64,000 nt of DNA, from NCBI GenBank assembly GCA_963844965.1, contig CAWJQC010000007.1, positions 256,001 to 320,000 of the forward strand, in the 5' to 3' direction. This document shows positions 31,992 through 60,845 of the stretch, one piece after another. The translations under genes and the position numbers were made by a program. The stretch comes from an uncultured bacterium. GTDB taxonomy: Bacteria; Patescibacteriota; Minisyncoccia; UBA6257; 2-01-FULL-56-20. Below the pieces are notes generated by a model. That model saw only the letters and a program-made list of their open reading frames with translations. It had not been told where the DNA came from and did no database searches. Within the stretch, counting starts at the first letter, position 1. Each line of letters opens with the position of its first letter.

Positions 31992-32585
31992 TTGGTTAGG
32001 ATTTTAGTTGTCATGCAGATGGTCGGATTTTTCCTCATATATTTAGTAGGTGCGGTTATCCTTTACCTGCTTCTTCGGCCGGTGACTCGCGGCGCGCCGT
32101 ATTTTACGACGAAGCCGGGGAGCGTGGACGCCATACTGCGCCTCGCTCACGCGGGACCGCACAATAAGGTCGCCGATCTCGGTTCCGGCGACGGGCGCAT
32201 ATTGATCGCCTTTGCGGAGCGGGGAGTTGAGTCGCACGGTTTTGAGATCAACCCGCTTCTCGTTTGGCTCTCGCGCCGCAGGATAAGCAGAGCCGGTCTC
32301 GCGGGGAAAGCCTTCGTCCACTGGGAAAGTTTTTGGAAAGCGGATTTAAGCGGGTTTGACATTGTCGTCGTTTACGGCATCACGCATATCATGAAAAAAC
32401 TGGAGGAAAAATTAGAGAAGGAACTCAAGCCGGGCGCAGAAAGTAATTTCCAACATTTACCGATTCCCCGGGTTGAGGTGCGTTGCGGAAGAGGGAAGGG
32501 TGTATTTATATCAGAAATAGCCGGCTACCATTTTTATTTACAAATCCATTATAATTTTACATATGAAGCACCTCATTTCGCTTAA
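31992..32585 (+). CDS. Membrane-anchored class I SAM-dependent methyltransferase
   Basis: N-terminal TM segment, then VADLGSGDGRIL glycine-rich SAM-binding motif I. Confidence 0.5.
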   Translation: MVRILVVMQMVGFFLIYLVGAVILYLLLRPVTRGAPYFTTKPGSVDAILRLAHAGPHNKVADLGSGDGRILIAFAERGVESHGFEINPLLVWLSRRRISRAGLAGKAFVHWESFWKADLSGFDIVVVYGITHIMKKLEEKLEKELKPGAESNFQHLPIPRVEVRCGRGKGVFISEIAGYHFYLQIHYNFTYEAPHFA

Positions 32586-33606
32586 AGAGCAGTCGCGCGA
32601 GGATATTCTTCAGATTTTGGAACTGGCGCGGAAGCTCAAGGAAAAGCGCGCGAAAGGCGAACTTACCGAATATCTCAAGGACAAGACGCTCATAATGCTT
32701 TTCCAAAAGACGTCCACGCGGACGAGGCTTTCGTTCGAGGCGGCGATGACGGAACTCGGCGGGCATGCCATATTTCTGGACGCGCGGACTTCCCAGCTTG
32801 GCCTTGCCGACTTCGGCGACGAAATTCGCGCCATCATGCGTTTCGGGCAGGTTCTCATGTTCCGCGCGCTCAAAGTCGCGGACGTGCTCACAGCCGCTTC
32901 ATTCAATCAGATTCCGGTGATTGACGCCTGCAGCGAAAAATATCATCCGGCACAATCGCTCGGCGATATGCTAACGATGATTGAACACAGCTCCCCGCGT
33001 CATCCTGAGCGCAGCGAAGGATCTCCATGCTCCCCAGCGGAATTTGCCGAGGGATTAAAAAATATCAAAAAAGTCGTCTGGCTCGGAATTGAAAATAATG
33101 TTTCAAATACCCTGAAGCTTGTTTGCGTGAAGCTTGGCGTCAGGTTTGTGATCGCCGCGCCGGAAGTGGACGCGGCGAGCGTTGATGAGGAGTTGAACAG
33201 AATGGCCGAGGCCACCGGACTTATTTCACGGACGCTGAATCTGAAAGAAGCTCTCGCCGGAGCGGATTATGTTCACACCGATACCTGGCTCAACATGGAG
33301 TTTTTCGACACGACGGTGTCGACCCTGAGCGAAGTCGAACGGGTTCATGGAAGCCGCGTGAAGCCGCAATTCGCGGAAGAATTGGAACGCAGGAAGAAAA
33401 TTTTCATGCCTTACCAGCTGAATGCCAAGCTGATTGATACCTATGCCCCGAAGGCGAAGATAATGCATTGTCTTCCCGCGCACGTCGGCTATGAAATTTC
33501 CCGCGATGCCATTGACCACAAGAATTCCGTTATTTTTGACCAAGCCGAGAACCGCCTGCACATCCAAAAAGCCGTAATTATGTGGCTCTTGGGGAAGGGG
33601 ACATAG
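32563..33606 (+). CDS. Ornithine carbamoyltransferase-like (ATCase/OTCase family) protein with an unusual ~20-aa insertion
   Basis: STRTR carbamoyl-phosphate motif, HPAQ, HCLPA; the usual GDGNNV is replaced by IENNV after an SPRHPERSEGSPCSPAEFAEG insertion. Confidence 0.6.
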   Translation: MKHLISLKEQSREDILQILELARKLKEKRAKGELTEYLKDKTLIMLFQKTSTRTRLSFEAAMTELGGHAIFLDARTSQLGLADFGDEIRAIMRFGQVLMFRALKVADVLTAASFNQIPVIDACSEKYHPAQSLGDMLTMIEHSSPRHPERSEGSPCSPAEFAEGLKNIKKVVWLGIENNVSNTLKLVCVKLGVRFVIAAPEVDAASVDEELNRMAEATGLISRTLNLKEALAGADYVHTDTWLNMEFFDTTVSTLSEVERVHGSRVKPQFAEELERRKKIFMPYQLNAKLIDTYAPKAKIMHCLPAHVGYEISRDAIDHKNSVIFDQAENRLHIQKAVIMWLLGKGT

Positions 33607-33729
33607 TTTGCTATTTTGTCTGAAAAATAGGCCCTGACTCAAAGTCGAGGTTTTTATTTGTTGTCGGCGGGACATTTTGGATTTTTCCAGTAGTAAATGC
33701 TAAACTAAATCTACAACTTAATATGCCTA

Positions 33730-33906
33730 AACCGCCGAAATTTCGGTAACATGGCGTAAAAATCCCATCCCTGATACTAAGCTCCTCGCTTAGCTACTCA
33801 GGGATGGGTCGCGTCTCGAAAGAGGCGTGGGTAACCGAAAGGTTGCCATGCTAGCGGGGAGCTTCGTGTTTTCCGTTAGCGGCATAGATTAAAACCCATC
33901 CCTGCT
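33730..33906 (+). promoter_or_regulatory. Highly structured 5' leader upstream of the DNA methyltransferase gene
   Basis: Nested hairpins (cccatccctga...tcagggatggg; GAAA-looped stems cgtctcgaaagaggcg and ggtaaccgaaaggttgcc); a second cccatccctg copy overlaps the start codon region. Confidence 0.4.
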
Positions 33907-35505
33907 ATGCCCAACAAGCTTTACTTCGGAGATAATCTTGATATCCTCCGCGACAAAATCGCCGACAATTCGGTTGATTTGATTTACCTTGACCCACCGT
34001 TCAACTCCAATCGCAACTACAACGTACTTTTTAAAGAGGGATTGCAGGATAGTCCAGCACAAGTTCAAGCATTTGAGGATAGCTGGCACTGGACGCGCGA
34101 AGCGCAGGCGACTTTTGAGGAACTAATGGGTGTGCGGCCATCAAAGACAAAAATCAACGCCGACATCGTTAATTTAGCGCAGGCGTTAGAGAAGCTAGTC
34201 GGCCATAACGATATGCTGGCTTATCTCACAATGATGACGATTCGCTTAATCGAACTAAGGCGTGTTCTGAAGCCAACCGGAAGTATTTACCTTCATTGCG
34301 ACCCAACCGCCAGCCATTATTTGAAAGTTGTGTTGGACACCGTTTTTGGGAAACAAAATTTTTTGAATGAAGTCATTTGGAGATACGAAGGACCTCAATC
34401 GCCAAGCTTAATTAAATTTGCGACGAAGCACGATATCGTTCTTCGTTATGCGAGTGATATAAAATCTTGCAAAGCCGTCGAATTATATTATTTTGAAAAG
34501 ATATCAGTTGAAGATGCAAATTTTAAGCAGGATGAGAATGGGCGTTATTTCTATACTCTACCCAAAGGAGACTATACCGAAGAAAGCATAAAAAGATTAG
34601 AACAAGAAGGTCGTATATTCAGGACCTCTAAGGGAACAGTGCGTATAAAGTATTTTGTAGAAAAAACTTCGGATGGGAACTTTTTGCGTAAAAAGAAAAT
34701 ACCAGACGTTTGGGACGACATACCTTCGCTTGGGCTTACTGCCCAATCGAAAGAAGTTCTTGGTTATCCGACCCAAAAACCCGAAGCACTTTTGGAAAGA
34801 ATAATCAGAGCATCTTCAAAAGAAGGCGACTTAGTTCTTGACCCATTCTGCGGTTGTGGCACGACGGTCTCCGTCGCTGAGCGGCTAAAAAGGAATTGGG
34901 TTGGTATTGATATTACGATGCTTGCTATTAATTTGATTCGCCATCGCCTCGCGAAACAATATCCGAACATAGAAATTTTAGTGGATGGCAGGCCAAAAGA
35001 TATTCCCGCAGCCGGGGCGCTTTTCAAAAAAGACCCGTTTGAATTTGAATACTGGGCACTGGATTTAGTTGACGCTGTTCCTGCTCAAAGCAAAACCAAA
35101 GAAAATATGCGTGGCGCAGACAAGGGGATTGACGGCGTGATTAACTTTGTCAGAGACATAAAAAATGGCGAGCAAGTTTACGGTAAGTTGGTTGTTCAGG
35201 TGAAGGGTGGTGCGGTTCACCGCGACCAAATTGCTACGCTTAAGGGTGATATAGAGCGTGAGCGGGCCGACGGCGGAATTTTTGTGACGCTCGAGAAGCC
35301 AACCCAGCCAATGAAAGAAGAGGCAGTAAGCACCGGAAGTTATAAGGTGGGTTTTGGCAAAGGAGAATACCCGAAAATTCAGATAGTAACCATAGAGGAT
35401 TTATTAGATAATAAGAAGCCTGAAGTTCCTATTGCCGCCCTGCCTTATTATAAAGAGGCCAAAGTTGCTAAATCCGAAAACAGGTCAAAAAAATTAGGAA
35501 TATAG
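33907..35505 (+). CDS. Site-specific DNA methyltransferase (N6-adenine/N4-cytosine, beta class), orphan
   Basis: Motif IV LIYLDPPFNS precedes motif I DPFCGCGTT; 532 aa with an extra C-terminal domain; no cognate endonuclease adjacent. Confidence 0.75.
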   Translation: MPNKLYFGDNLDILRDKIADNSVDLIYLDPPFNSNRNYNVLFKEGLQDSPAQVQAFEDSWHWTREAQATFEELMGVRPSKTKINADIVNLAQALEKLVGHNDMLAYLTMMTIRLIELRRVLKPTGSIYLHCDPTASHYLKVVLDTVFGKQNFLNEVIWRYEGPQSPSLIKFATKHDIVLRYASDIKSCKAVELYYFEKISVEDANFKQDENGRYFYTLPKGDYTEESIKRLEQEGRIFRTSKGTVRIKYFVEKTSDGNFLRKKKIPDVWDDIPSLGLTAQSKEVLGYPTQKPEALLERIIRASSKEGDLVLDPFCGCGTTVSVAERLKRNWVGIDITMLAINLIRHRLAKQYPNIEILVDGRPKDIPAAGALFKKDPFEFEYWALDLVDAVPAQSKTKENMRGADKGIDGVINFVRDIKNGEQVYGKLVVQVKGGAVHRDQIATLKGDIERERADGGIFVTLEKPTQPMKEEAVSTGSYKVGFGKGEYPKIQIVTIEDLLDNKKPEVPIAALPYYKEAKVAKSENRSKKLGI

Positions 35506-50964: not shown

Positions 50965-53830
50965 ATGGAGTACGTCATCCTCGATATCGAAACTACTGGC
51001 CTAGATAAGGAACATTCTTCTATTATCGAGATAGCTGCTATCCTCGTAGAAAAAGGAGGTGTCAAAAATAGTTATAGCTCTTTTGTTCATTATGATGGCG
51101 TTCTCTCGGAAACCGTAAAGCGGCTAACTGGCATCCAAGAAGAAGATACTCAAAAAAGCTCCACTAATAGCTGCTGTCATTTCTGAGTTGAAAAATTTTA
51201 TTCAGAAGCGACCCGTTGTTGCTCATAATGGATATTCCTTCGATTTCTTTTTTCTTGAACGGGAGGGGCTGAAACTGGAAGAAAAATATGACTCTATGGA
51301 ATTTGCCTTTTTTGTCATGCCCACGAACGCTCCTGGCCATTCGATCCCTGCGCTCGCGGAACAATTTAAGTTAGGCGAAGCTCCGCATCGGGCGCTCGGG
51401 GATTGCAAGCTCGAACTCACAATAATCAATCGTCTTCAAAAGGAATATGGAAAGAGAAAGAAATCAAAACGAGAAGTTCTTGCTCATGCCGCAGGAACGA
51501 CAGGATGGTGGTGGTCCAATTTCCTCTCGGGAGAGAAAGCTCCTACTGATCGAATTTCAAGCCTCATTGAGGCTTATGAGCCATACCGCAAAGAATATCG
51601 CGGGGCAGAAATGCTGGGATTTCAAACAGAAGTGATCGATATTGCAGAGGTTGAAAAATATTTTCAACCAGCGGTAAAAGCGGGCGAGAAAAACGGAGAG
51701 GATGATTACTCGGAAGATCGACCCGAACAACGAGAGATGGCGAAAATGGTAGCCACGGCGTTTAACAAGCATAAGCATGCGGTCATAGAAGCCGGTACAG
51801 GCACCGGAAAATCAAAAGCATATCTCGTGCCGTCGCTCCTTTTTGGACTCAAGAACCGCATACCGATGATCATATCGACCCATACCAAAGCACTCCAAGA
51901 TCAGTTATCCCTCAAAGAAATACCGCACATAAAGAATCTCATTCGGCCCGATCTGCGCGTTGCTGTTCTCAAGGGAAAACAAAATTACGTCTGCTTGGCA
52001 AAATTCGAGATTTTTGCCGAAGAAACTGTGAAGGAGCTTTCGCAACGATCCTTGTATGAGTTTGGTGAATCGGAAACTCGGTATTCAACACGCCTCGCTT
52101 ATTTATTGCTCTTCTCGTGGATTCTTGAAGCTGAGTATGGCGATTGGGACGAGCTGCCATACTGGATCAAAGAGCGGATTCCCAAATATATACAAGCCGA
52201 AATCTGCAATATCGATGAGCTTTGCGGCAATGGGACTTGCGACATCTATGACGCAGAAAAATGTTTCCTTGCTAAGGCCAGGCTTCGCGCACGTGATGCC
52301 GATCTTGTGATTGTAAATCACGCGCTTGCTCTTATGGGCATCATTATTGAGGATAAGACTCCCGAAATACCCAGTGAGCCAGGCGTCGATGTGCCTCCGA
52401 GTAAAATGTATAGTCATACGGTCTTTCCTAACGAGTCGAAATTCATCGTATTCGACGAGGCCCAACATCTTGAGGACGACGCAACTTCGGCATGGGAGCA
52501 TGTGCTCTCCCAGAGTTTCCTACAACTAATTCTCCAGCAACTTTATGGTAAGCGAGGCGTCCAGCAGCTTGTAAAATCTATCGCCAGCAAAAAAACTGAT
52601 GAACGACTCACGCGGCTTGCAGCAAATTTTGAGAGTGGCGAAGGCAACATAAAAATCGGCGTCGAGGCGCTTTTTAAAAATATCTTACCGCACCTCGTTT
52701 CCGAAAGTGATACACGGGAAACTTATACTATGCTCGATGAAATTCCCGATACCTCTCCGGAGCGGAAAGCGCTATTCTCTGAGCTACGGAGCTTGCGGCA
52801 ACGATTTCTTGATATTGCAAGAATATTAAGTGAATTTTCGGAAGAAACCGAAGTTCCAAGGATGCGCAAAACCCTTTCCGTCCGCTACAACACTCTTCAA
52901 CGGATCGTGCGCTCATTCGATGCCATTCTAGAAAACGATAACGTATATGTGAGATACCTCCAGCGATTCGGTTCAAGCGTTGAAATTAAAGCTGCTCCAC
53001 TCTCGGTCGGTCCATACCTGAAAGATTATGTCTACGATAATTTTGCTTCGGTAGTTATGACCTCGGCGACACTCACTGTCGGCAAACGGTTCAATTTCTT
53101 CGCGAGCCGCTGTGGGACATTATTAGTCGACAAAGAAAAGATTGGGTACAGACTTTTCCATTCCTCCTTCAACTACGAGAAGCAAGTTAAATTTTTTGTT
53201 CCGAAAGGAATTAACTATAAAGAAGATCGCGAAACCCATCTTGCGAAAAGCACTGAGTTTCTTAAAAAAGCGATTGTCGCCTCCGGCGGAGGCGCGCTCG
53301 TGCTTTGCTCAAGCCACGATCAGGTCGGAGAACTTTACCAAGGGCTCTCAAAGACACTTTCTGAAAACAATATTTGGCTTCTCCGGCAGCAGAAAGGCAT
53401 ATCAGTAAGCTCCGTCATCAGAGATTTTAGAAGGGACGTCGATTCGGTGCTTATTGGCACCGAGACCCTCTGGCAGGGCATCGATGTTCCCGGGGAATCG
53501 CTCCGCAGCCTTTTTATTTATAAGATTCCATATCGAATGCCTGGCCTTCCTCTCATCAAAGCCCGCCGGAAAGAGATTGAAGATAACGAGCGGGATAGCT
53601 TTGCCGAATATTATGAACCGCTTGCCGCTCTAATTCTCAAGCAGGGATTCGGGCGGTTGATCCGCAAATCCACTGACATCGGTATCGCCGTACTTCTCGA
53701 TGAAAACTTTCTTAAAAAGCCGAGCCTTATGAACTCCCTTCCGGAAGGCGTCCACCCTCAAGCTGCCGAGCCGGAAGCTATTTGCGAAGAACTTCATAAA
53801 TTACACTTGTTGCGACTGAAGGAGAGTTAG
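50965..53830 (+). CDS. dinG: DinG-family ATP-dependent helicase with an N-terminal DnaQ-like 3'-5' exonuclease domain; frameshift at about 51150
   Basis: Exo I ILDIETTGL, Exo II VAHNGYSFDFFFL, Exo III HRALGDCK; helicase Walker A AGTGTGKS and DEAH-like VFDEAQHL; the N-terminal 73-aa ORF and the 880-aa ORF join across an A6 run. Confidence 0.75.
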
Positions 53831-53862
53831 CCACAAGCCAGAAAATCAGCTATGCTTTTTCA

Positions 53863-54333
53863 ATGGACGCAACATTCGTAAAAGACCTCATCAAGGGGAA
53901 GATTGCCGAAATTATATTCGAGCAGATGTTTCGTGAGTCCGGCGAGTATACAATTCTCCATTCTGGCTATGAATATACCCTGCCCGAACTCGCGCAGTAT
54001 CAACATCTCACCGAGATAAAAGCAGTGATTGAGAACATAAGGAATGCGCCAGATTTCGTTTTAATTTCGCAAGATAAAAAACGGGTTTATCTCGTGGAGG
54101 TGAAATATCGGCGCAACCGCAATCCGCGCGAGCTAAAAAAAATTTGTGAAAATACCCTTCAGATCTGGAATCCTTCGTGGCTTTTTGTAGCATCTCCTGA
54201 TGGATTTTTCTTTGAGCCCTGCAACGATGTGGTCAACAAAAATGATGGGCAGATTGGACCCCTCTACGATAAGTGGGTAAAAAACGATGTTCAATCGGAA
54301 TATCTGAAACTCCTGAATCAGTTTGAGCTTTAA
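53863..54333 (+). CDS. Small PD-(D/E)XK nuclease-fold protein
   Basis: E..PDFVL...YLVEVKYR pattern (E, PD, ExK); 156 aa. Confidence 0.4.
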   Translation: MDATFVKDLIKGKIAEIIFEQMFRESGEYTILHSGYEYTLPELAQYQHLTEIKAVIENIRNAPDFVLISQDKKRVYLVEVKYRRNRNPRELKKICENTLQIWNPSWLFVASPDGFFFEPCNDVVNKNDGQIGPLYDKWVKNDVQSEYLKLLNQFEL

Positions 54334-54340
54334 ATTGAGA

Positions 54341-55841
54341 TTAACCAATCTCTTTTTCCAAGTTCTCCAATATGCGTACCATCGCCATCGTGTCGAGGCC
54401 ACAATAGAGCAGCATGTCCCGCTTGAGTTTTTCCTTTTCAGCTAGTGGCGTCTTGGAATCCGTAAGCCGCGGCCAGCTGACAGACGCCGTGCTCCCTTCC
54501 TGAATGGCGAGATTCTGATACGAAAGTTCGGGCACGAGGACCGGGAGAATCGCCTTGATGGACGCGCTCCCATGGAAACCTTGCATCCACGAACATCTTT
54601 TTCTTAAATATAAGCATCAGGTCGTAGACGCGGTTGTTCACCGCCTCCATGAAATCGGCATATTCTGGATATTGCTCTCCGATCTCCTTATTCCTTGGCA
54701 CTTCGAATGGAGCGAACCATACGATGACAGTTCCTTTCGTGCCGATATCCGTTTTGAGTTGCGCCACCATCTCCGGAATGGGATTTGCGTCCTTCACCGC
54801 CAAAAACTCCTTTTGCTCCGCCTCGGCCTTGGGCGTTTTCTTAATGTGAAGTGAGTATTGAAAAACTATCTTCTGCCACGGACGCGTGCCGTCATAGGGT
54901 GGTATGGGTGAGGCAAACGTTTCATAATCCAAAAAGTAGATTGGGTAAACGAGCGCCGCGAGTTCCTTTTTTATCATCGCGGCATCCATCGTTTTTTCCA
55001 CTGGCGTATACCCAAGGCCACGCAGAAATACCGCAGAGAGCGAATTCGCGTCAAGAGTTCCTTTTTTCAACAAGCTGAGGGTGAAGGCTGGTGGCCAGTT
55101 CTTGACATCCAATTTTTTTGCCGGGGCCTTGGAGAGGTAAAATTCCAAGTGGTCGCACGAACCAGTCTTCGACTTGCACGAAAGGATAACGCGATTGTCC
55201 GGGAAGTCCTCGATGGCGAGGAGGGCGAGGGAATCTGCTATGCTTGTTTTAATCTCAGGCACAAGATCACGCGCCTCATCAGTCACATCCTCAGTTATAA
55301 AAAACTTCTTGGGCTCTACGTTCCCTTTCCGTACATATTCATTGTTTACATGAATAATGAAAGTTTTCCCCACTTTGATGCCAGCTTCTTCAAAACAAAT
55401 GAGCTGGAACGCAACATCGCGTAAGTCCTCCGGCCGAACCTTTGTTGCACTCTTCACCTCGCGGATATCGTAAGCATCCGCCGTTTGATCATAGGTCACA
55501 ATATCTGCGCGGCAGGTCAATCCGGTCTTTGTGACGACGGTCGGCTGGAAAATAACTTTTTGTTTTTCGTCAAAGAGTGTTTTGCTTTTGCGCCAACCTT
55601 CCTCGTTAAAATCAAAAAGTTCTATGCCATCCTTATAGAGCTGCTTTGCGAGTATATCCACCTTTTCACCTTCCTGTTGATGGAAGATCTCTGATGCCGA
55701 GGGAAGCGGCATAAGATGTTTGCCTTTTCTCGCCATCCAAAGGTAACAACCGCATTCGAGAAAGTTCTTGTAGTCGGTCTTCGTGAACAGTTTAGCCATA
55801 GTTAGTTCTTCATTTCTATCACGTTGAGCAGCTTTTCGCAA
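54341..55841 (-). CDS. DUF2779-family protein (Cas4/RecB-like nuclease N-terminus plus DUF2779 C-terminus); frameshift near 54600 in an A-run
   Basis: N-terminus LFTKTDYKNFLECGCYLWM; YFLDYETFASPIPPY; C-terminal piece GSASIKAILPVLVPELSY lies in ORF 54341..54586 in another frame. Confidence 0.55.
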
Positions 55842-56095
55842 AAGATGAAGGGACGTCAGGAACCCTCAAAAAATATTGTCAAACTGGCTCCAAACGTGAT
55901 ACCTTTTAGGTAATTGAATATCAGATAGATCGCCTAAACCACGCATTTTGCATGGCATGGCATTACGCAGAATCTCCCTTCCAGATACCAAACGCCACGT
56001 TTGGCGACTTCTGGAAGGGAGTCACTCCGAAAGGGGTGGGGCCGCAAGGCCCAAGCCAGCGTGGCGTTTTGTGTTCTCTATTTTAAAACAAACCC

Positions 56096-57007
56096 ATGGC
56101 CTTATTCTCCATCTCAAACGGCAGCACGAAGAAAATATCATCCGTGAAAATCGGGCTTGAAAAAGACGTCCAAAAACTCTTCGAGAAAAACCTTGAGGAG
56201 ATTTTGAATATCACATTCCTAGCATCAGAGTATTCAACGAGCTTCGGCGGACGAATCGATACGCTGGGTATGGATCATAACGGAGCGCCAGTGATCATTG
56301 AATATAAGCGGTCGCAAAATGATAGCGTCATCAACCAAGGCCTGTCATACCTCCGATGGCTTCTTGATCACAAAGCGGATTTTGAAGCGCTGGCGCACCG
56401 ATTAAAAATTGAGATTGAAATTGATTGGGCTTCTCCGCGCGTTATCTGCGTGGCCGAGAGTTACAATAAATTTGACCTCGATACCGCCGATCTTCTGCCG
56501 ATGAACATAGAACTGTTACGCTACAAGATTTATGAACAAAACATTCTTCTCGTTGAACCAGAAGTGCAACGCAAAATAAAAATATCCACGTCGGAAGTAT
56601 TCGAGAAAACAACGCGGGAGAGGCACGAGTTTAAAGAACAGATCAAACACACCATCGAAGATCATTTGAAATCAGCAAATCCCGCCATCCGCGATCTTTT
56701 TGCCGCCATGAAAGAGAAAGTTCTTGCGCTTGACGAATCAATCAGCGAGGAGCCGAAAGCGCATTACATTGCCTACAAACTGGTGAATAATTTTGTGGAT
56801 GTTGCGGTGCAAAAGGACGCCTTAAAAATTTTCCTCAACATCACGAGCGGCGCGTTAAATGATCCGACATCTCTGGCCCGCGACCTTACTAAGCCGAAAC
56901 CCGTTGGCCACTGGGGTAACGGCGACTACGAACTCAAGCTTGATCAACGGGAAAATCTCAATGCTGTGATGGCGCTCATCAAGCAAAGTTACGAATACAA
57001 CAAGTAA
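56096..57007 (+). CDS. NucS/RecB-like PD-(D/E)XK nuclease-fold protein with a C-terminal DUF5655-like domain
   Basis: GRIDTLGMDHNGAPVIIEYKR...QGLSYLRWL pattern; 303 aa. Confidence 0.45.
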   Translation: MALFSISNGSTKKISSVKIGLEKDVQKLFEKNLEEILNITFLASEYSTSFGGRIDTLGMDHNGAPVIIEYKRSQNDSVINQGLSYLRWLLDHKADFEALAHRLKIEIEIDWASPRVICVAESYNKFDLDTADLLPMNIELLRYKIYEQNILLVEPEVQRKIKISTSEVFEKTTRERHEFKEQIKHTIEDHLKSANPAIRDLFAAMKEKVLALDESISEEPKAHYIAYKLVNNFVDVAVQKDALKIFLNITSGALNDPTSLARDLTKPKPVGHWGNGDYELKLDQRENLNAVMALIKQSYEYNK

Positions 57008-57134
57008 AGCCCTTGTTCAGAAATACTGAAAATCCCCGCTGTAAACCAGAGGAGGTTTTCGGTTTCTTTTTCCATCCGCCCTAAAATAGCGCGGCGATTT
57101 TTCGTGTTCAAAAATAAACTAATTTATCATCACT

Positions 57135-59063
57135 ATGGCAAAACGAGGAAGACCGCCGAAAAATCAATTGACGGTCGCGCAACCAAAAACCGAATGTGCT
57201 CCGGACATGAGTAGTCTCAATAAGATGCCGAAGTATTGTTTGTACGCGAGGAAGTCATCGGAGAGCGAAGAACGGCAGGCACTCTCCATCGACTCACAGG
57301 TCAAGGAGATGTATAAGATCGCGGAGCGCGATCATCTCTCGGTCGTTGAAGTACTGACCGAATCACACTCTGCAAAAAGCACCGGATGCCGACCGATCTT
57401 TAACCAGATGGTTATAGGTGTTAAGGATGGCCGCTTTGAGGGCATTCTTACCTGGGCACCGGATCGTCTGAGTCGCAACGCAGGCGACTTGGGCCAGCTG
57501 GTCGATCTTATGGACAACGGCCATCTTGCGGAAATCCGCACGTTCGGGCAGATATTCAAAAATTCGCCCAACGAAAAATTCTTGCTTATGATTCTCTGCT
57601 CACAGGCGAAACTCGAAAATGATAACAAGAGCGAGAACGTGAAGCGAGGTCTCCGTGCTGCCGCCGAGCGAGGATATCGCCCAGGCGTCGCACTTGTGGG
57701 ATACACGAACAGTTATCGCAGGGATCATCCCGGCGAAGTGGTAATTGATAAACTGCGAGCCCCAATCATAAAGCTTATGTTTGAGAAAGCCGCAAATGGA
57801 TGGTCAGCGCGGAAGTTGGTGGTCTGGCTTCGCGGTATCAACTTTACGACGCGCAACGGAACATATCTCTATCTAAGCAGTGTTCATACGCTGTTGCAGA
57901 ACCACTTTTACTACGGCACGTTCGAATACCCTCGGGGCAGCGGCGCATGGCACAAAGGAAATCATAAACCGCTCATTACCAAGGATATGTTCGACCGTGT
58001 TCAAGCGCAGATTGAACGACGGCGCACCTCGCGCCGCTCGGAGCGGAAATCTTTTGGATTCACCCAGCTCATGCATTGCGGCATCTGTGGCTCCGGCGTT
58101 TCCGCCGAAGAAAAATTTAAGAAACTGGTAGACGGTTCACAGGCCCGCTATGTCTACTACGGATGCAATCGTTCCAAGGGGGTGAAGTGTACCAATACTT
58201 ACATCCGTGAGGATTTTCTGGTCCGGCAGTTTGTGAACATCATCGACGAGATATCGCTCGACGAGCTTGGCATACGAAAACTTCTCGGCGAGGAAACTGA
58301 GCGTGTCTTTCGGTTTCACAATGATGTCATGGGCGATCCTAACGCTTCGGAAACTCAAGAGAAAAAAGATATCGACATTAAAACCTACGCTAAATATCTA
58401 CTCGCAAGAGGCAACGCCGAAGAAAAAAGATTACTACTATGCAACATTCAGAACCGACTGATCCTTCGGGATAAAGCCGTATATCTGGAAGAAGTAGGCG
58501 GTCTTACCTGGAAGGACTATATTGGCCATATGAGAAAGTGCGCGAACTGCGGATCAAAAAACGTGAACGAGAGCGGACCGTATGCGAACTGGAAATTCGG
58601 CGATACGCCAATCGACGACACGCCGCGGATCGTGTATTTCGCTTGTCTCGACTGTGAGCAATCGTGGAAGCAGGTCAACGAGAATATCTTGCGATTAATG
58701 CGCGAGTATGTGGTGGTGCCAGAGGGAAACGGGGCGTGGATTAAAACACCTGGCGGCTCGGAGTTTTTCGCGACGCCGTCTTTCGCCGCGCGGTTCAGAG
58801 ACACGGTGGAGATAGACGGCAAAAAAGTGCCACCGAAAAAAATTCTCGGGGAAATGCTGTACTGGCCAGACAGGAACGCTTACGAGACGACGATCGAATA
58901 TGACGACGGAAGCGAACGGACATTTGATATCCCAAGTCTTCGTGGCAGGAACAATACAGAAGAAGGCATGAAGCCGATCAGCAATAAGGATGGTCTTATG
59001 GAGTACAAAGAAGGTAAGATGCAAACTTATTTCGGTCGCGGTCTCCAATATGACGGCCGATAA
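57135..59063 (+). CDS. Large serine recombinase (phage-type serine integrase)
   Basis: Resolvase catalytic domain (LYARKSSESEERQALSIDSQ), recombinase domain, Cys-rich zinc ribbon (CGICG...CNRSKGVKC) and a coiled-coil C-terminal region; 642 aa. Confidence 0.85.
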   Translation: MAKRGRPPKNQLTVAQPKTECAPDMSSLNKMPKYCLYARKSSESEERQALSIDSQVKEMYKIAERDHLSVVEVLTESHSAKSTGCRPIFNQMVIGVKDGRFEGILTWAPDRLSRNAGDLGQLVDLMDNGHLAEIRTFGQIFKNSPNEKFLLMILCSQAKLENDNKSENVKRGLRAAAERGYRPGVALVGYTNSYRRDHPGEVVIDKLRAPIIKLMFEKAANGWSARKLVVWLRGINFTTRNGTYLYLSSVHTLLQNHFYYGTFEYPRGSGAWHKGNHKPLITKDMFDRVQAQIERRRTSRRSERKSFGFTQLMHCGICGSGVSAEEKFKKLVDGSQARYVYYGCNRSKGVKCTNTYIREDFLVRQFVNIIDEISLDELGIRKLLGEETERVFRFHNDVMGDPNASETQEKKDIDIKTYAKYLLARGNAEEKRLLLCNIQNRLILRDKAVYLEEVGGLTWKDYIGHMRKCANCGSKNVNESGPYANWKFGDTPIDDTPRIVYFACLDCEQSWKQVNENILRLMREYVVVPEGNGAWIKTPGGSEFFATPSFAARFRDTVEIDGKKVPPKKILGEMLYWPDRNAYETTIEYDDGSERTFDIPSLRGRNNTEEGMKPISNKDGLMEYKEGKMQTYFGRGLQYDGR

Positions 59064-60845
59064 GCGTTGCCAGATGGCAAAATAACATCGCCGCTTCCGG
59101 AGGAATTGCTTGGAGTAGGGCTTGGCGGTGCACTTGCCGATGGAGATCCGTCGCTGGTCTCGGATGGTCCATTTCGCGGAGATGGTCCCAACGCCGCAGG
59201 CCGATGAGTACTGTCTGCGGAATTGTCGCCAGTGTTCGGCGGCGGTGGCGTAGAACGCGGAGCAAGACCCCATACTTGTAAATTGCCGAGGAGATCGGGG
59301 AGATTAACGCTGTAGCTGTCCGTGGGCAATGGCTCGGTATTTCTGCTGCGGCCCATGATCTCCACCTTGCCCGTATCCAGGTTAAGCCGCCCAATCACTG
59401 GCAACTGGCCATTCTCTCCAATCACGCTGTTCGCCATGAGGGTAAATGCGTCACAGAGGTCATCGAACCGCTCTATGCCAAATCCAATGAGCTGTTGCTT
59501 CAGGTGTGAATTCTCCGGGTCCGGCGCGAAGAGTATTGTGCCATTCTGAATAAGAGCGCTTGCGGTCATAAGCCGGGCGTGTTTGTCGGTGGCGATCTTT
59601 ACGCCGATCACCCTGCAATGTTTGGATTTTTCGAGGTACTCGATGGCCGACCGTTGATAGGCCACATCCTCGATCCGTATCTCGACCGCGCCGCAAAGCT
59701 TCGTGTACATATCATGGAGTTCCTTGAGGAGCTCCATCGTTTCAAGGAACGCCATCCTGCGGTTAATCGTCTTGATGACATACCCGTGGAAGTCCTTGCC
59801 GAATCCGGCGAAGAGGCCTACGACGATGCCCGTGTAATCAGCGGTTTCTTTTTCCGAGATCGCGAGGTCGACCCCGATGACCACCTTTTTGATTTTCTCT
59901 TTCGGCAATACTACCCAGTGCTTGATCCATTCCGCTTGGATCACGCGCTCGTCGCTCGTGACCGTTTGGAGTAAAAATTCCCTGCGCCACGTAGTGTCGT
60001 CACCGATCTTCCGTTTGAACGCCTCAAGTGCCTCGGGCGTCTTGAACTTCTCTGGCCACTGGCATACGCCTTCATCGTCAACGAGCGGATACCGCCGAAA
60101 GACACCACCACGCTCGCCTTTTTTGATTTGCTCGATAACGCGGCCGAGCAGGGAAAATTCGTGCAAGAAATTCCCGATGAGAAAGATCTTTGTCTTTGTC
60201 GTGCCCAACGGAATTATTTCCGATACGAACCAGCTATAGATGCGATCGCGGTTTTCTTTTGTCCGCGTCCCTTGCAGATCTTGCGGATCGTCTACGATCA
60301 CATAGTCCGGGCGGTATTGCTTGTAGCGCAGACCGCGCACTGCCTGTTGGGACGAGATCGCAATTATTTTTGCATCGAATTTCCTGAGGGTCATGCCGAA
60401 CGCGCCGCTCTCGTCGCCCTCCATATCGATCGGTCCGAAATCATTTCTGAGGAGGGGCGATTCAAGCGCCTTGCGGATGTTGGAGAAATGCGTCCGCACC
60501 TGATGGAGCGTATCGGACGCGATCACGATAAAGTGGGCGCGACCGCTGAGGATCAGACCACAGAGAGAATGACGTATTGAGAATCGCGCTCTTCCCGGAA
60601 TTTCTGAATCCGGCGATCACATAGAGATCATTGTCGTTCGACTCGGTAAGGCGAAACATATCTCGGTGAAAGTCCGCCATCGGGTCTTGGAGGTAGTCCG
60701 CAAGATAGATGTTAAAAAACATCGCGTGCGACCACTGGCCAAGCTTGCGCCGCAGGAGGCGGCTCTTGCGGATGATGTCGATGAAGAAATTGAACTTATC
60801 GGCATTGTTACTGTTGTCACTACTAGGAATTGGTAGGTTGTCCAT
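59027..60845 (-). CDS. Phage terminase large subunit (ATPase plus nuclease); frameshift near 60500
   Basis: N-terminal ORF 60462..60845 has Walker A GFRNSGKS; ORF 59027..60526 has Walker B PDYVIVDDPQD and nuclease GVDLAISEKETADYTGIVV. Confidence 0.65.

Follow-up and report, generated by a model that had tools for sequence, protein, structure and literature searches.

LOOT (Rfam RF03000) was first reported in a 2017 survey of 224 candidate structured RNAs (PMC5737381). Rfam classes it as "Gene; sRNA" (small RNA), and its model ends at the hairpin P4. An unusual 28 "cross-covariations" were later counted in the family (PMC7657543), and Rfam 15 added two more covarying pairs (PMC11701678). We note that the cross-covariations fit helices with more than one partner. 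Beyond passing mentions, the literature searched reports no function or ligand for LOOT. Here, we analyze a LOOT RNA in a 64,000-nucleotide stretch of an uncultured member of the Patescibacteriota (contig CAWJQC010000007.1, positions 256,001 to 320,000; hereafter "the window," with positions counted from its first letter), where it forms the leader of a DNA methyltransferase (MTase) gene. To our knowledge, LOOT is among the few conserved structured RNAs of the Patescibacteria (candidate phyla radiation), a very large and mostly uncultured group whose regulation is barely known. With moderate confidence, and on the basis of the sequences, we read the element as a cis-acting bistable leader of the MTase mRNA, transcribed from its own promoter, in which the start site would be either open or masked.

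In riboswitch expression platforms, as would be the case in LOOT, a folded domain in the 5' untranslated region (5'-UTR) is followed by mutually exclusive helices, of which one blocks initiation and one is G+C-rich and followed by a U-tract. LOOT, however, would swap the stem of its largest, hypervariable internal hairpin and not a P1-type closing helix. Its masked sequence is a literal copy of the other strand of that stem, its putative terminator encloses 60-70 nt (B', P3, and P4, defined below), and no ligand is implied. In the c-di-GMP-I riboswitch (GEMM-I), a GNRA tetraloop sits in a receptor related to the 11-nt receptor, and the genes behind it are mixed, many of them for surface or secreted proteins (PMC11571812 and general knowledge). 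LOOT resembles it in logic only, as there is no likeness in sequence or secondary structure and no Rfam GEMM match in the window. The 11-nt GAAA receptor itself (Tetrahymena P4-P6) reads CCUAAG / UAUGG, and the corresponding loop in the window reads CCUAAA / CAUGG. An A..C thus replaces the canonical G-U wobble of the receptor, and docking is suggested here by analogy; one comparison locus (L314) has the canonical form. In hok-type toxin mRNAs (tac/fbi), as is generally known, long-range alternative pairings set the access to the start without a metabolite sensor, and the order of folding matters. Here, the sequence family is unrelated, and in hok the partner lies at the 3' end of the mRNA, where 3' processing triggers refolding.

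A scan of the whole window with Rfam 15 gave four matches, two tRNAs and two LOOT RNAs. The first LOOT copy scored 84.1 bits in cmscan (gathering score 46.4, E-value 2e-14) over model positions 1-121 of 121, and the identity of 33724-33847 as a LOOT RNA is essentially certain. A preliminary description of this DNA, made from the sequence alone, had proposed such a covariance scan and had assigned the structure to no recognized class; the match stands well above the gathering score of a family that Rfam types as sRNA. The copy has the P0/P1 CCUAAA..CAUGG loop, the long P2, the P3 hairpin with its GAAA loop, and the P4 hairpin with its GNRA loop, just as in the Rfam model. In contrast, the conserved 5' 10-mer with its promoter, the segment Y with the U-rich tract, the segment Z, the stem copy B2, and the position in front of a gene all lie outside the model. 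These features, including the constancy of the pre-gene position, are not described in the literature searched, which covered the 2017 survey without its supplement. The parts of the leader, all on the plus strand, are as follows.

33730-33910, plus strand: the MTase leader as first described; the RNA starts at 33724 according to the Rfam model and at about 33713 according to the probable transcript start.

33677-33706, plus strand: probable sigma-70-type promoter, with a -35 element TTGGAT (33677-33682), an 18-nt spacer, and a -10 element TAAACT (33701-33706).

33713-33722, plus strand: conserved 10-mer ACAACTTAAT (consensus ACAAYTKAAT), where the transcript probably begins, outside the Rfam model.

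33724-33847, plus strand: LOOT core, copy 1, a full-length match to RF03000; all helices were reproduced by an independent minimum free energy (MFE) fold.

33724-33727 with 33753-33756, plus strand: helix P0, from the alignment to the Rfam model.

33726-33731 (CCUAAA) and 33750-33754 (CAUGG), plus strand: internal loop between P0 and P1; an A-rich joiner precedes the long P2 in the helix set.

33734-33747, plus strand: P1, from the alignment to the Rfam model.

33764-33774, plus strand: B, the 5' strand of basal P2, CCCATCCCTGA, complementary at 11 of 11 positions to 33798-33808.

33775-33797, plus strand: X, the apical half of P2, with two possible pairings, a local hairpin (CTAAGC/GCTTAG) or a duplex with Y over its full length.

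33798-33808, plus strand: B', the 3' strand of basal P2, TCAGGGATGGG, with B or B2 as partner.

33810-33829, plus strand: hairpin P3 with a GAAA tetraloop (33818-33821), the GAAA being invariant in the Rfam consensus.

33830-33847, plus strand: hairpin P4 with a GAAA tetraloop of the GNRA type (33837-33840).

33849-33875, plus strand: Y followed by the U-rich tract, UGCUAGCGGGGAGC UUCGUGUUUUCC; together they complement the whole of X and lie outside the Rfam model.

33850-33862 (GCTAGCGGGGAGC) with 33868-33880 (GTTTTCCGTTAGC), plus strand: Y:Z hairpin of 13 bp in the MFE fold.

33868-33880, plus strand: Z, GUUUUCCGUUAGC, which belongs to the stem gctagcgg/ccgttagc of the preliminary description.

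33891-33906, plus strand: B2, the second copy of B, with the core CCCATCCCTG at 33895-33904 behind an A-rich lead-in, at -12 to -3 of the MTase start codon.

33907-35505, plus strand: MTase gene, 532 amino acids, with an N6_N4_Mtase domain and a C-terminal Mrr_cat / NA-iREase1-like domain.

For comparison, a sequence pattern derived from the two window copies was used to collect relatives from IMG/VR and from species-representative genomes. Filtering for the hairpin left 68 distinct LOOT loci, both window copies included. In the species-representative genomes, the pattern matches fell overwhelmingly into metagenome-assembled genomes of Patescibacteria. All 18 comparison loci that were re-scored are LOOT according to Rfam, with 66-94 bits.

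One new element is the helix X:Y. At every locus, Y lies directly 3' of P4 and is followed by the U-rich motif CUUUKUGU, and Y together with this tract is complementary to the whole of X. When X was paired with the Y of its own locus, the mean energy was -24.1 kcal/mol, compared with -13.6 for permuted partners and -5.7 for an upstream control. At window copy 1, the X:Y duplex reaches -27.9 kcal/mol, against -6.6 for the local apical hairpin. From a plain MAFFT alignment of 62 sequences, RNAalifold selected the long-range helix unaided. Over the 14 core pairs, 93.3% of the cells are paired, compared with 72% after shuffling and 40-57% when the partners were slid along each other. Double-change cells number 199 against 54.5, and none of 500 shuffles reached the covariation score of 0.769 (0.329 for the shuffles). 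The six further pairs that run into the U-tract are paired in 79% versus 63% of cells, a value that was again reached by 0 of 500 shuffles, and the best-kept part is a block of 10 bp (95.6% paired). G-U wobbles make up 19% of the X:Y pairs. Hence, the pairing operates at the RNA level and is specific to the plus strand. The two window copies differ in a compensatory manner, as each pairs well with itself (-27.9 and -27.3 kcal/mol) and poorly across copies (-16.3 and -10.3 kcal/mol).

There is no linker 5' of X and one of about 3 nt on its 3' side. By helix geometry, an X:Y helix of about 20 bp therefore should not fit inside a closed B:B' stem. From this, we infer that X:Y and closed B:B' are alternatives, or that only the core of about 10 bp coexists with the closed stem as a pseudoknot. 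In the aligned loci, the 3' strand of X:Y runs directly into CUUUKUGU, and the enclosed "loop" consists of 60-70 nt of structured RNA (B', P3, and P4). Judged by its sequence, this G+C-rich helix with its U-tract resembles an intrinsic terminator whose loop is very large and structured; a simple terminator scan did not call it.

The second element is the copy of the stem at the start codon. In the window, CCCATCCCTG occurs at 33764-33773 and exactly again at 33895-33904, 2 nt 5' of the ATG at 33907 (3 nt had been given before). Extended to 17 nt, the repeat (33760-33776 versus 33891-33907) retains 88% identity, and the second CCCATCCCTG copy is complementary at 11 of 11 positions to 33799-33809. 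The number of CCCATCCCTG matches in the 64 kb, 3 against 2.6 expected at no more than one mismatch, is not significant when taken alone. What lifts the repeat above chance is that the same three-way relation recurs with other sequences at other LOOT loci. The 206-nt region as a whole folds with an MFE of -95.1 kcal/mol, compared with -56.6 ± 4.5 for shuffled sequences (z = -8.5).

B is 10-12 bp long in most loci and begins with CC in 49 of the 68, while its sequence is highly variable (58 distinct sequences). Only 6 of 729 basal P2 pairs are G-U (0.8%), compared with 13-21% in P1, P3, P4, and X:Y. That the most variable helix of LOOT is also nearly free of wobbles suggests a different mode of evolution or an additional constraint. 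We compared the 5' half of P2 with the downstream region of its own locus. A shared run of at least 9 nt was present in 14 of 68 loci, against 3.6% for the downstream regions of other loci (binomial p = 1e-7), and a run of at least 10 nt in 13 of 68, against 1.1% of controls (p = 8e-13). Across the same 68 loci, the 3' half of P2 gave no match of at least 9 nt, and the upstream flank gave 3.

The copies, B2, comprise 10 distinct sequences in the 14 loci, and in 10 of these loci the ATG of a long open reading frame (ORF) follows 1-4 nt after the end of B2. Extra exact copies of B in the 8-kb loci were found at the downstream start region only; as other targets of B or B', no additional copies were detected in the 8-kb loci, nor for copy 1 in the 64-kb window. 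Pairing of B' with the start region falls below the 1% permutation quantile in 11 of 59 loci, where 0.6 would be expected. None of the other segments (5' lead, P0/P1, joiner, B, X, P3, P4, and Y) pairs with start regions above the permutation controls. All six MTase-linked LOOT RNAs of the set carry B2. Five of them lead members of the same family as the window MTase and use four different B2 sequences; the sixth leads an unrelated gene of the N6_Mtase type. In B2 loci, Y:Z is stronger as well, with a mean of -16.8 kcal/mol, compared with -12.4 for permuted pairs and -10.2 in loci that lack B2 (Mann-Whitney p = 0.001).

The preliminary description thus holds up in most of its structural detail. 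All stems that it listed and the second 10-mer are present in the sequence and in the fold. Its proposal that the second copy is an alternative partner of the 3' strand of the hairpin is supported by the 11 of 11 complementary positions and by the recurrence in 14 of 68 loci, and the pairing has been maintained in evolution. It had also held that the pairing partners ought to be conserved in homologous leaders, and the pairing is kept in six MTase loci through four distinct sequences. Its idea of mutually exclusive folds is supported in part, through an alternative pairing that would mask the start, but it overlooked the stronger and universal X:Y helix.

From these elements, two states of the leader can be drawn up. 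In state 1 (open), P2 would be closed by B:B' with a small apical hairpin, Y would be paired with Z, and B2 and the AUG would be single-stranded. The receptor-like CCUAAA/CAUGG loop of P0/P1 probably receives the GAAA loop of P3, and such tertiary contacts probably stabilize this state. The pattern used for retrieval held the A..C of that loop fixed, so variation at this position lies outside the reach of the sample. P4 has a GAAA, GCAA, or GUAA loop in 62 of 68 loci. In state 2 (masked), a helix of about 20 bp, formed by X with Y and the U-tract, would force B:B' open, and the released B' would pair with B2 at -12 to -3 of the AUG.

No recognizable Shine-Dalgarno motif was found within 25 nt upstream of eleven gene starts in the window (32563, 33907, 35829, 36431, 53863, 56096, and 57135, among others). 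For initiation, the genome probably depends on start regions that are unstructured and A/U-rich, and masking of such a region should block it. Because X:Y with the U-tract may act as a terminator, the switch may also operate on transcription, and in the approximately 80% of leaders without B2, termination or the occlusion of a U-rich landing zone would be the sole output. Candidates for flipping the switch would be a ligand, a protein, Mg2+ or temperature, and the kinetics of folding.

The predicted energies allow both states. In the window copy, B:B' (-20.8 kcal/mol) and B':B2 (-19.9 kcal/mol) are close to each other. The nested optimum of -96.1 kcal/mol contains the closed P2 (-27.9) and the Y:Z hairpin (-19.9). 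When B' was withheld, X:Y formed by itself in a fold of -75.5 kcal/mol, to which B':B2 adds -19.9; X:Y arose spontaneously under this condition in all 14 B2-type leaders. Over these 14 leaders, the energy of state 2 relative to state 1 lies between -14.6 and +6.2 kcal/mol (mean -3.3), not counting any penalty for the pseudoknot. By these model values, the two states look nearly iso-energetic and the design balanced.

The position of LOOT relative to genes is constant. In the 400 nt downstream, an ORF of at least 80 amino acids on the same strand dominates in 58 of 64 loci (opposite strand in 2, unclear in 4), and the upstream genes are mainly divergent (36 versus 14). ORF starts cluster 40-70 nt past P4, and the gap from the U-tract to the ORF start is 15-30 nt. 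This leaves no space for a separate promoter after the U-tract; hence, the genes depend on transcription reading through LOOT, which makes it cis-regulatory in effect.

Upstream of the RNA, the 10-mer precedes P0 by 0-14 nt (22 nt in one locus) in 48 of 67 loci at no more than two mismatches, 24 of them exact, and 33713 is its sole exact match in the 64-kb window. When 36 loci were aligned on the 10-mer, promoter signals emerged at fixed distances: TTGa at -35 to -32, TG at -15/-14, and TAnnnT at -12 to -7. From the spacing of these signals, transcription probably begins with the first A of the 10-mer. Read in this way, the window copy probably has its promoter at 33677-33706 and its start near 33713, and LOOT would be the leader of the MTase mRNA and not a free-standing gene. 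A simple consensus promoter scan made no call at 33677-33706. No consistent pairing partner of the 10-mer was found in the leader, where the best duplexes average -4 kcal/mol and scatter over P2, P4, and Y. A leader peptide starting at the conserved GUG/UUG in the U-tract was considered and rejected, since the possible frames run for 1 to more than 30 codons or share the frame of the main ORF, and none of them is conserved. The structured 5' leader of the MTase gene that had been described before is borne out by the same-strand ORFs and by the promoter signals 5' of the RNA. The region assigned to it was right, although a start at 33730 is slightly late for an RNA that begins at 33724 or about 33713.

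The MTase start at 33907 is the first start codon past a stop, relatives align from residues 1-5, and the Pfam assignments have E-values of 6.6e-43, 2e-10, and 9.3e-11. At other loci, the genes behind LOOT include two unrelated MTase types, DUF5655/NucS-like and SNase proteins, DUF2726, zinc-ribbon membrane proteins, proteases, and many unassigned proteins. An N-terminal hydrophobic segment is present in 31 of 54 LOOT-led proteins, and the genes share no pathway that would point to a ligand. The "riboswitch" label of the preliminary description implies ligand binding, but the downstream genes are too diverse to indicate what the ligand might be. Its placing of the leader before an MTase is correct for this gene; a leader specific for MTases it is not, as LOOT precedes diverse genes and is found before none of the 20 closest metagenomic relatives.

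Two leaders in the collection, L121:7852-7981 (minus strand) and L137:629-758 (plus strand), are nearly identical by eye and share the same B2, CCACTGCGACA aa ATG. The gene behind the former, on a viral contig of IMG/VR, is of the N6_Mtase/HSDR_N type; the one behind the latter is of the unrelated N6_N4_Mtase type.

Several points weigh against a bistable leader. The case is built from sequence comparison and nearest-neighbor energies, the Rfam typing as sRNA runs counter to it, and the fixed pattern biases the collected set to close relatives of the window copy. B2 is a feature of a LOOT subclass, as about 80% of the leaders lack it. No LOOT was detected by Rfam before the 20 closest metagenomic relatives of the MTase, and a pattern scan of 80 metagenomic relatives found one at L314 only; the leader thus tracks the lineage and not the gene. 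Leader, B2, and start codon seem to travel together as a transferable module, a further reason for caution. The local apical hairpin that Rfam draws in P2 was rejected as a fixed conserved helix since its support in the shared register is weak (61.8% versus 57.6%), and the structure of state 1 may be less definite than shown here. A shorter X:Y of about 10 bp could form alongside closed P2, which would give a fixed structure and no switch. The energy of state 2 is a sum of its parts, in which X:Y and B':B2 cross in a pseudoknot-like manner, and more than 11 bp in this state may require transient opening or threading. Finally, P2 is very stable (-27.9 kcal/mol) and is the first to fold as the RNA is transcribed, and the RNA may remain in state 1 unless a trigger acts on it.

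Other explanations account for some of these observations. LOOT might be a stand-alone trans-acting sRNA with its own promoter, with X:Y and the U-tract as its terminator, the neighboring gene reached by leaky read-through, and B2, where present, as a target site at which the terminated sRNA would use B' to repress the mRNA of its neighbor. The Rfam class, the promoter evidence, the G+C-rich helix that runs directly into CUUUKUGU in all loci, and the complementarity between B' and the start region at some of the loci would all fit. We consider this rather improbable because the 15-30 nt between U-tract and ORF leave no separate promoter for a gene that lies on the same strand in nearly all loci (58 of 64, with 2 opposite and 4 unclear), B' would be buried in a perfect 11-bp helix of the sRNA fold, and the 8-kb loci contain no other copies of B or B', nor does the 64-kb window in the case of copy 1. 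A true riboswitch, in which the LOOT core is an aptamer for a small molecule or ion and binding stabilizes closed P2 and thereby sets the X:Y / B':B2 platform, would be a special case of the bistable leader and does not exclude it; it is possible, if doubtful. In its favor, the core is compact, conserved, and built of several helices, its junction nucleotides are invariant, it has a tetraloop/receptor-like pair, and in the 5'-UTR it is followed by a covarying expression platform; c-di-GMP-I, by general knowledge, likewise combines a tetraloop-receptor contact with very mixed genes. The diverse downstream genes, many with an N-terminal hydrophobic segment (31 of 54), nevertheless give no metabolic clue, a ligand pocket cannot be inferred from sequence, and the literature searched names neither ligand nor function.

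A static leader was also considered, in which B:B' stays closed beside a permanent X:Y pseudoknot of about 10 bp that protects the 5' end or serves processing (e.g., by RNase III), with B2 as a by-product. The 10-bp block (95.6% paired) is indeed short enough to lie beside a stem that stays closed, the helices have considerable length and stability, and the near-identical leaders of L121 and L137 before unrelated MTases speak for a module. A static pseudoknot, however, does not need an X:Y that spans all of X without linker and covaries into the U-tract. B2 tracks B/B' through 10 sequences and always lies on the start region, and Z co-occurs with it, so we regard this explanation as improbable. 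The repeat could finally be an element of the DNA, such as recombination sites of an invertible switch, operator or recognition sites of the MTase, or a chance repeat. MTase genes are, by general knowledge, often phase-variable or autoregulated, B:B' has the low G-U share (0.8%) that DNA symmetry predicts, and the CCCATCCCTG count alone is not significant in the window. Against this, X:Y, P1, P3, and P4 contain 13-21% G-U and hence pair only as plus-strand RNA, 58 distinct B sequences in 68 loci leave no shared site for a recombinase or operator, the same architecture precedes genes other than MTases, and B2 occurs at start codons far above chance. We give such an element hardly any credence.

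If the two-state leader is true, the Rfam typing as sRNA and the boundaries of the model need revision, and the genes behind LOOT (methyltransferases, nucleases, and surface proteins) form a co-regulated set. What LOOT senses would become directly testable on an RNA of 210 nt, and it would be a clean case of control by access to the start region alone, in genomes apparently without Shine-Dalgarno sites. More tentatively, LOOT as a family may be a widespread, Patescibacteria-specific cis-acting switch and not an sRNA, which would make it a new class of regulatory RNA that responds to some ligand or factor, with a regulon of DNA-handling and surface or secreted genes driven from its own conserved promoter. 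The hypervariable, nearly wobble-free P2 stem would then be a "programmable" module that, once X:Y forces it open, sets free a strand matched to the start region of the gene behind it; we hold this broader proposal to be possible rather than probable. The window instance is an ordinary one for LOOT, and it is the features of the family, i.e., the leader position, X:Y, and the B/B'/B2 swap, that are worth experimental follow-up.

Upstream of the LOOT promoter, just past an ornithine/aspartate carbamoyltransferase gene (32563-33606), a hairpin followed by TTTTTATTT lies at 33628-33662 and is terminator-like by eye; a simple terminator scan did not call it. If it is a real terminator, it would keep the LOOT promoter apart from the carbamoyltransferase gene.

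The second LOOT copy in the window escaped the preliminary description, which was correct for the elements of copy 1.

55910-56074, plus strand: second LOOT unit, with the core at 55931-56052 (58.4 bits in cmscan), Y and the U-tract at 56054-56074, and no B2.

Its 5' 10-mer is degenerate (GTAATTGAAT, 55910-55919), and neither its X:Y nor its B:B' sequences cross-pair with their counterparts in copy 1. The gene that it leads (56096-57007) is DUF5655/NucS_C-like according to Pfam, and a large serine recombinase (57135-59063) comes next. The stem strand of this copy, CTCCCTTCCAGA, has one-mismatch copies at 53734-53745 and 54492-54503 (plus strand), 1.5-2.3 kb 5' of copy 2. In the whole window, it has 11 matches at no more than two mismatches, against 4.45 expected, none of them near a start codon. 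The second copy lies within a cluster of DNA-handling and mobile-element-like genes (51188-60526). Besides the serine recombinase, the cluster contains a DinG-like helicase (Helicase_C_2, 51188-53830), a DUF2779 protein (54438-55841, minus strand), and an ORF of 499 amino acids (59027-60526, minus strand) that has no Pfam match. The cluster may be the edge of an integrated element.

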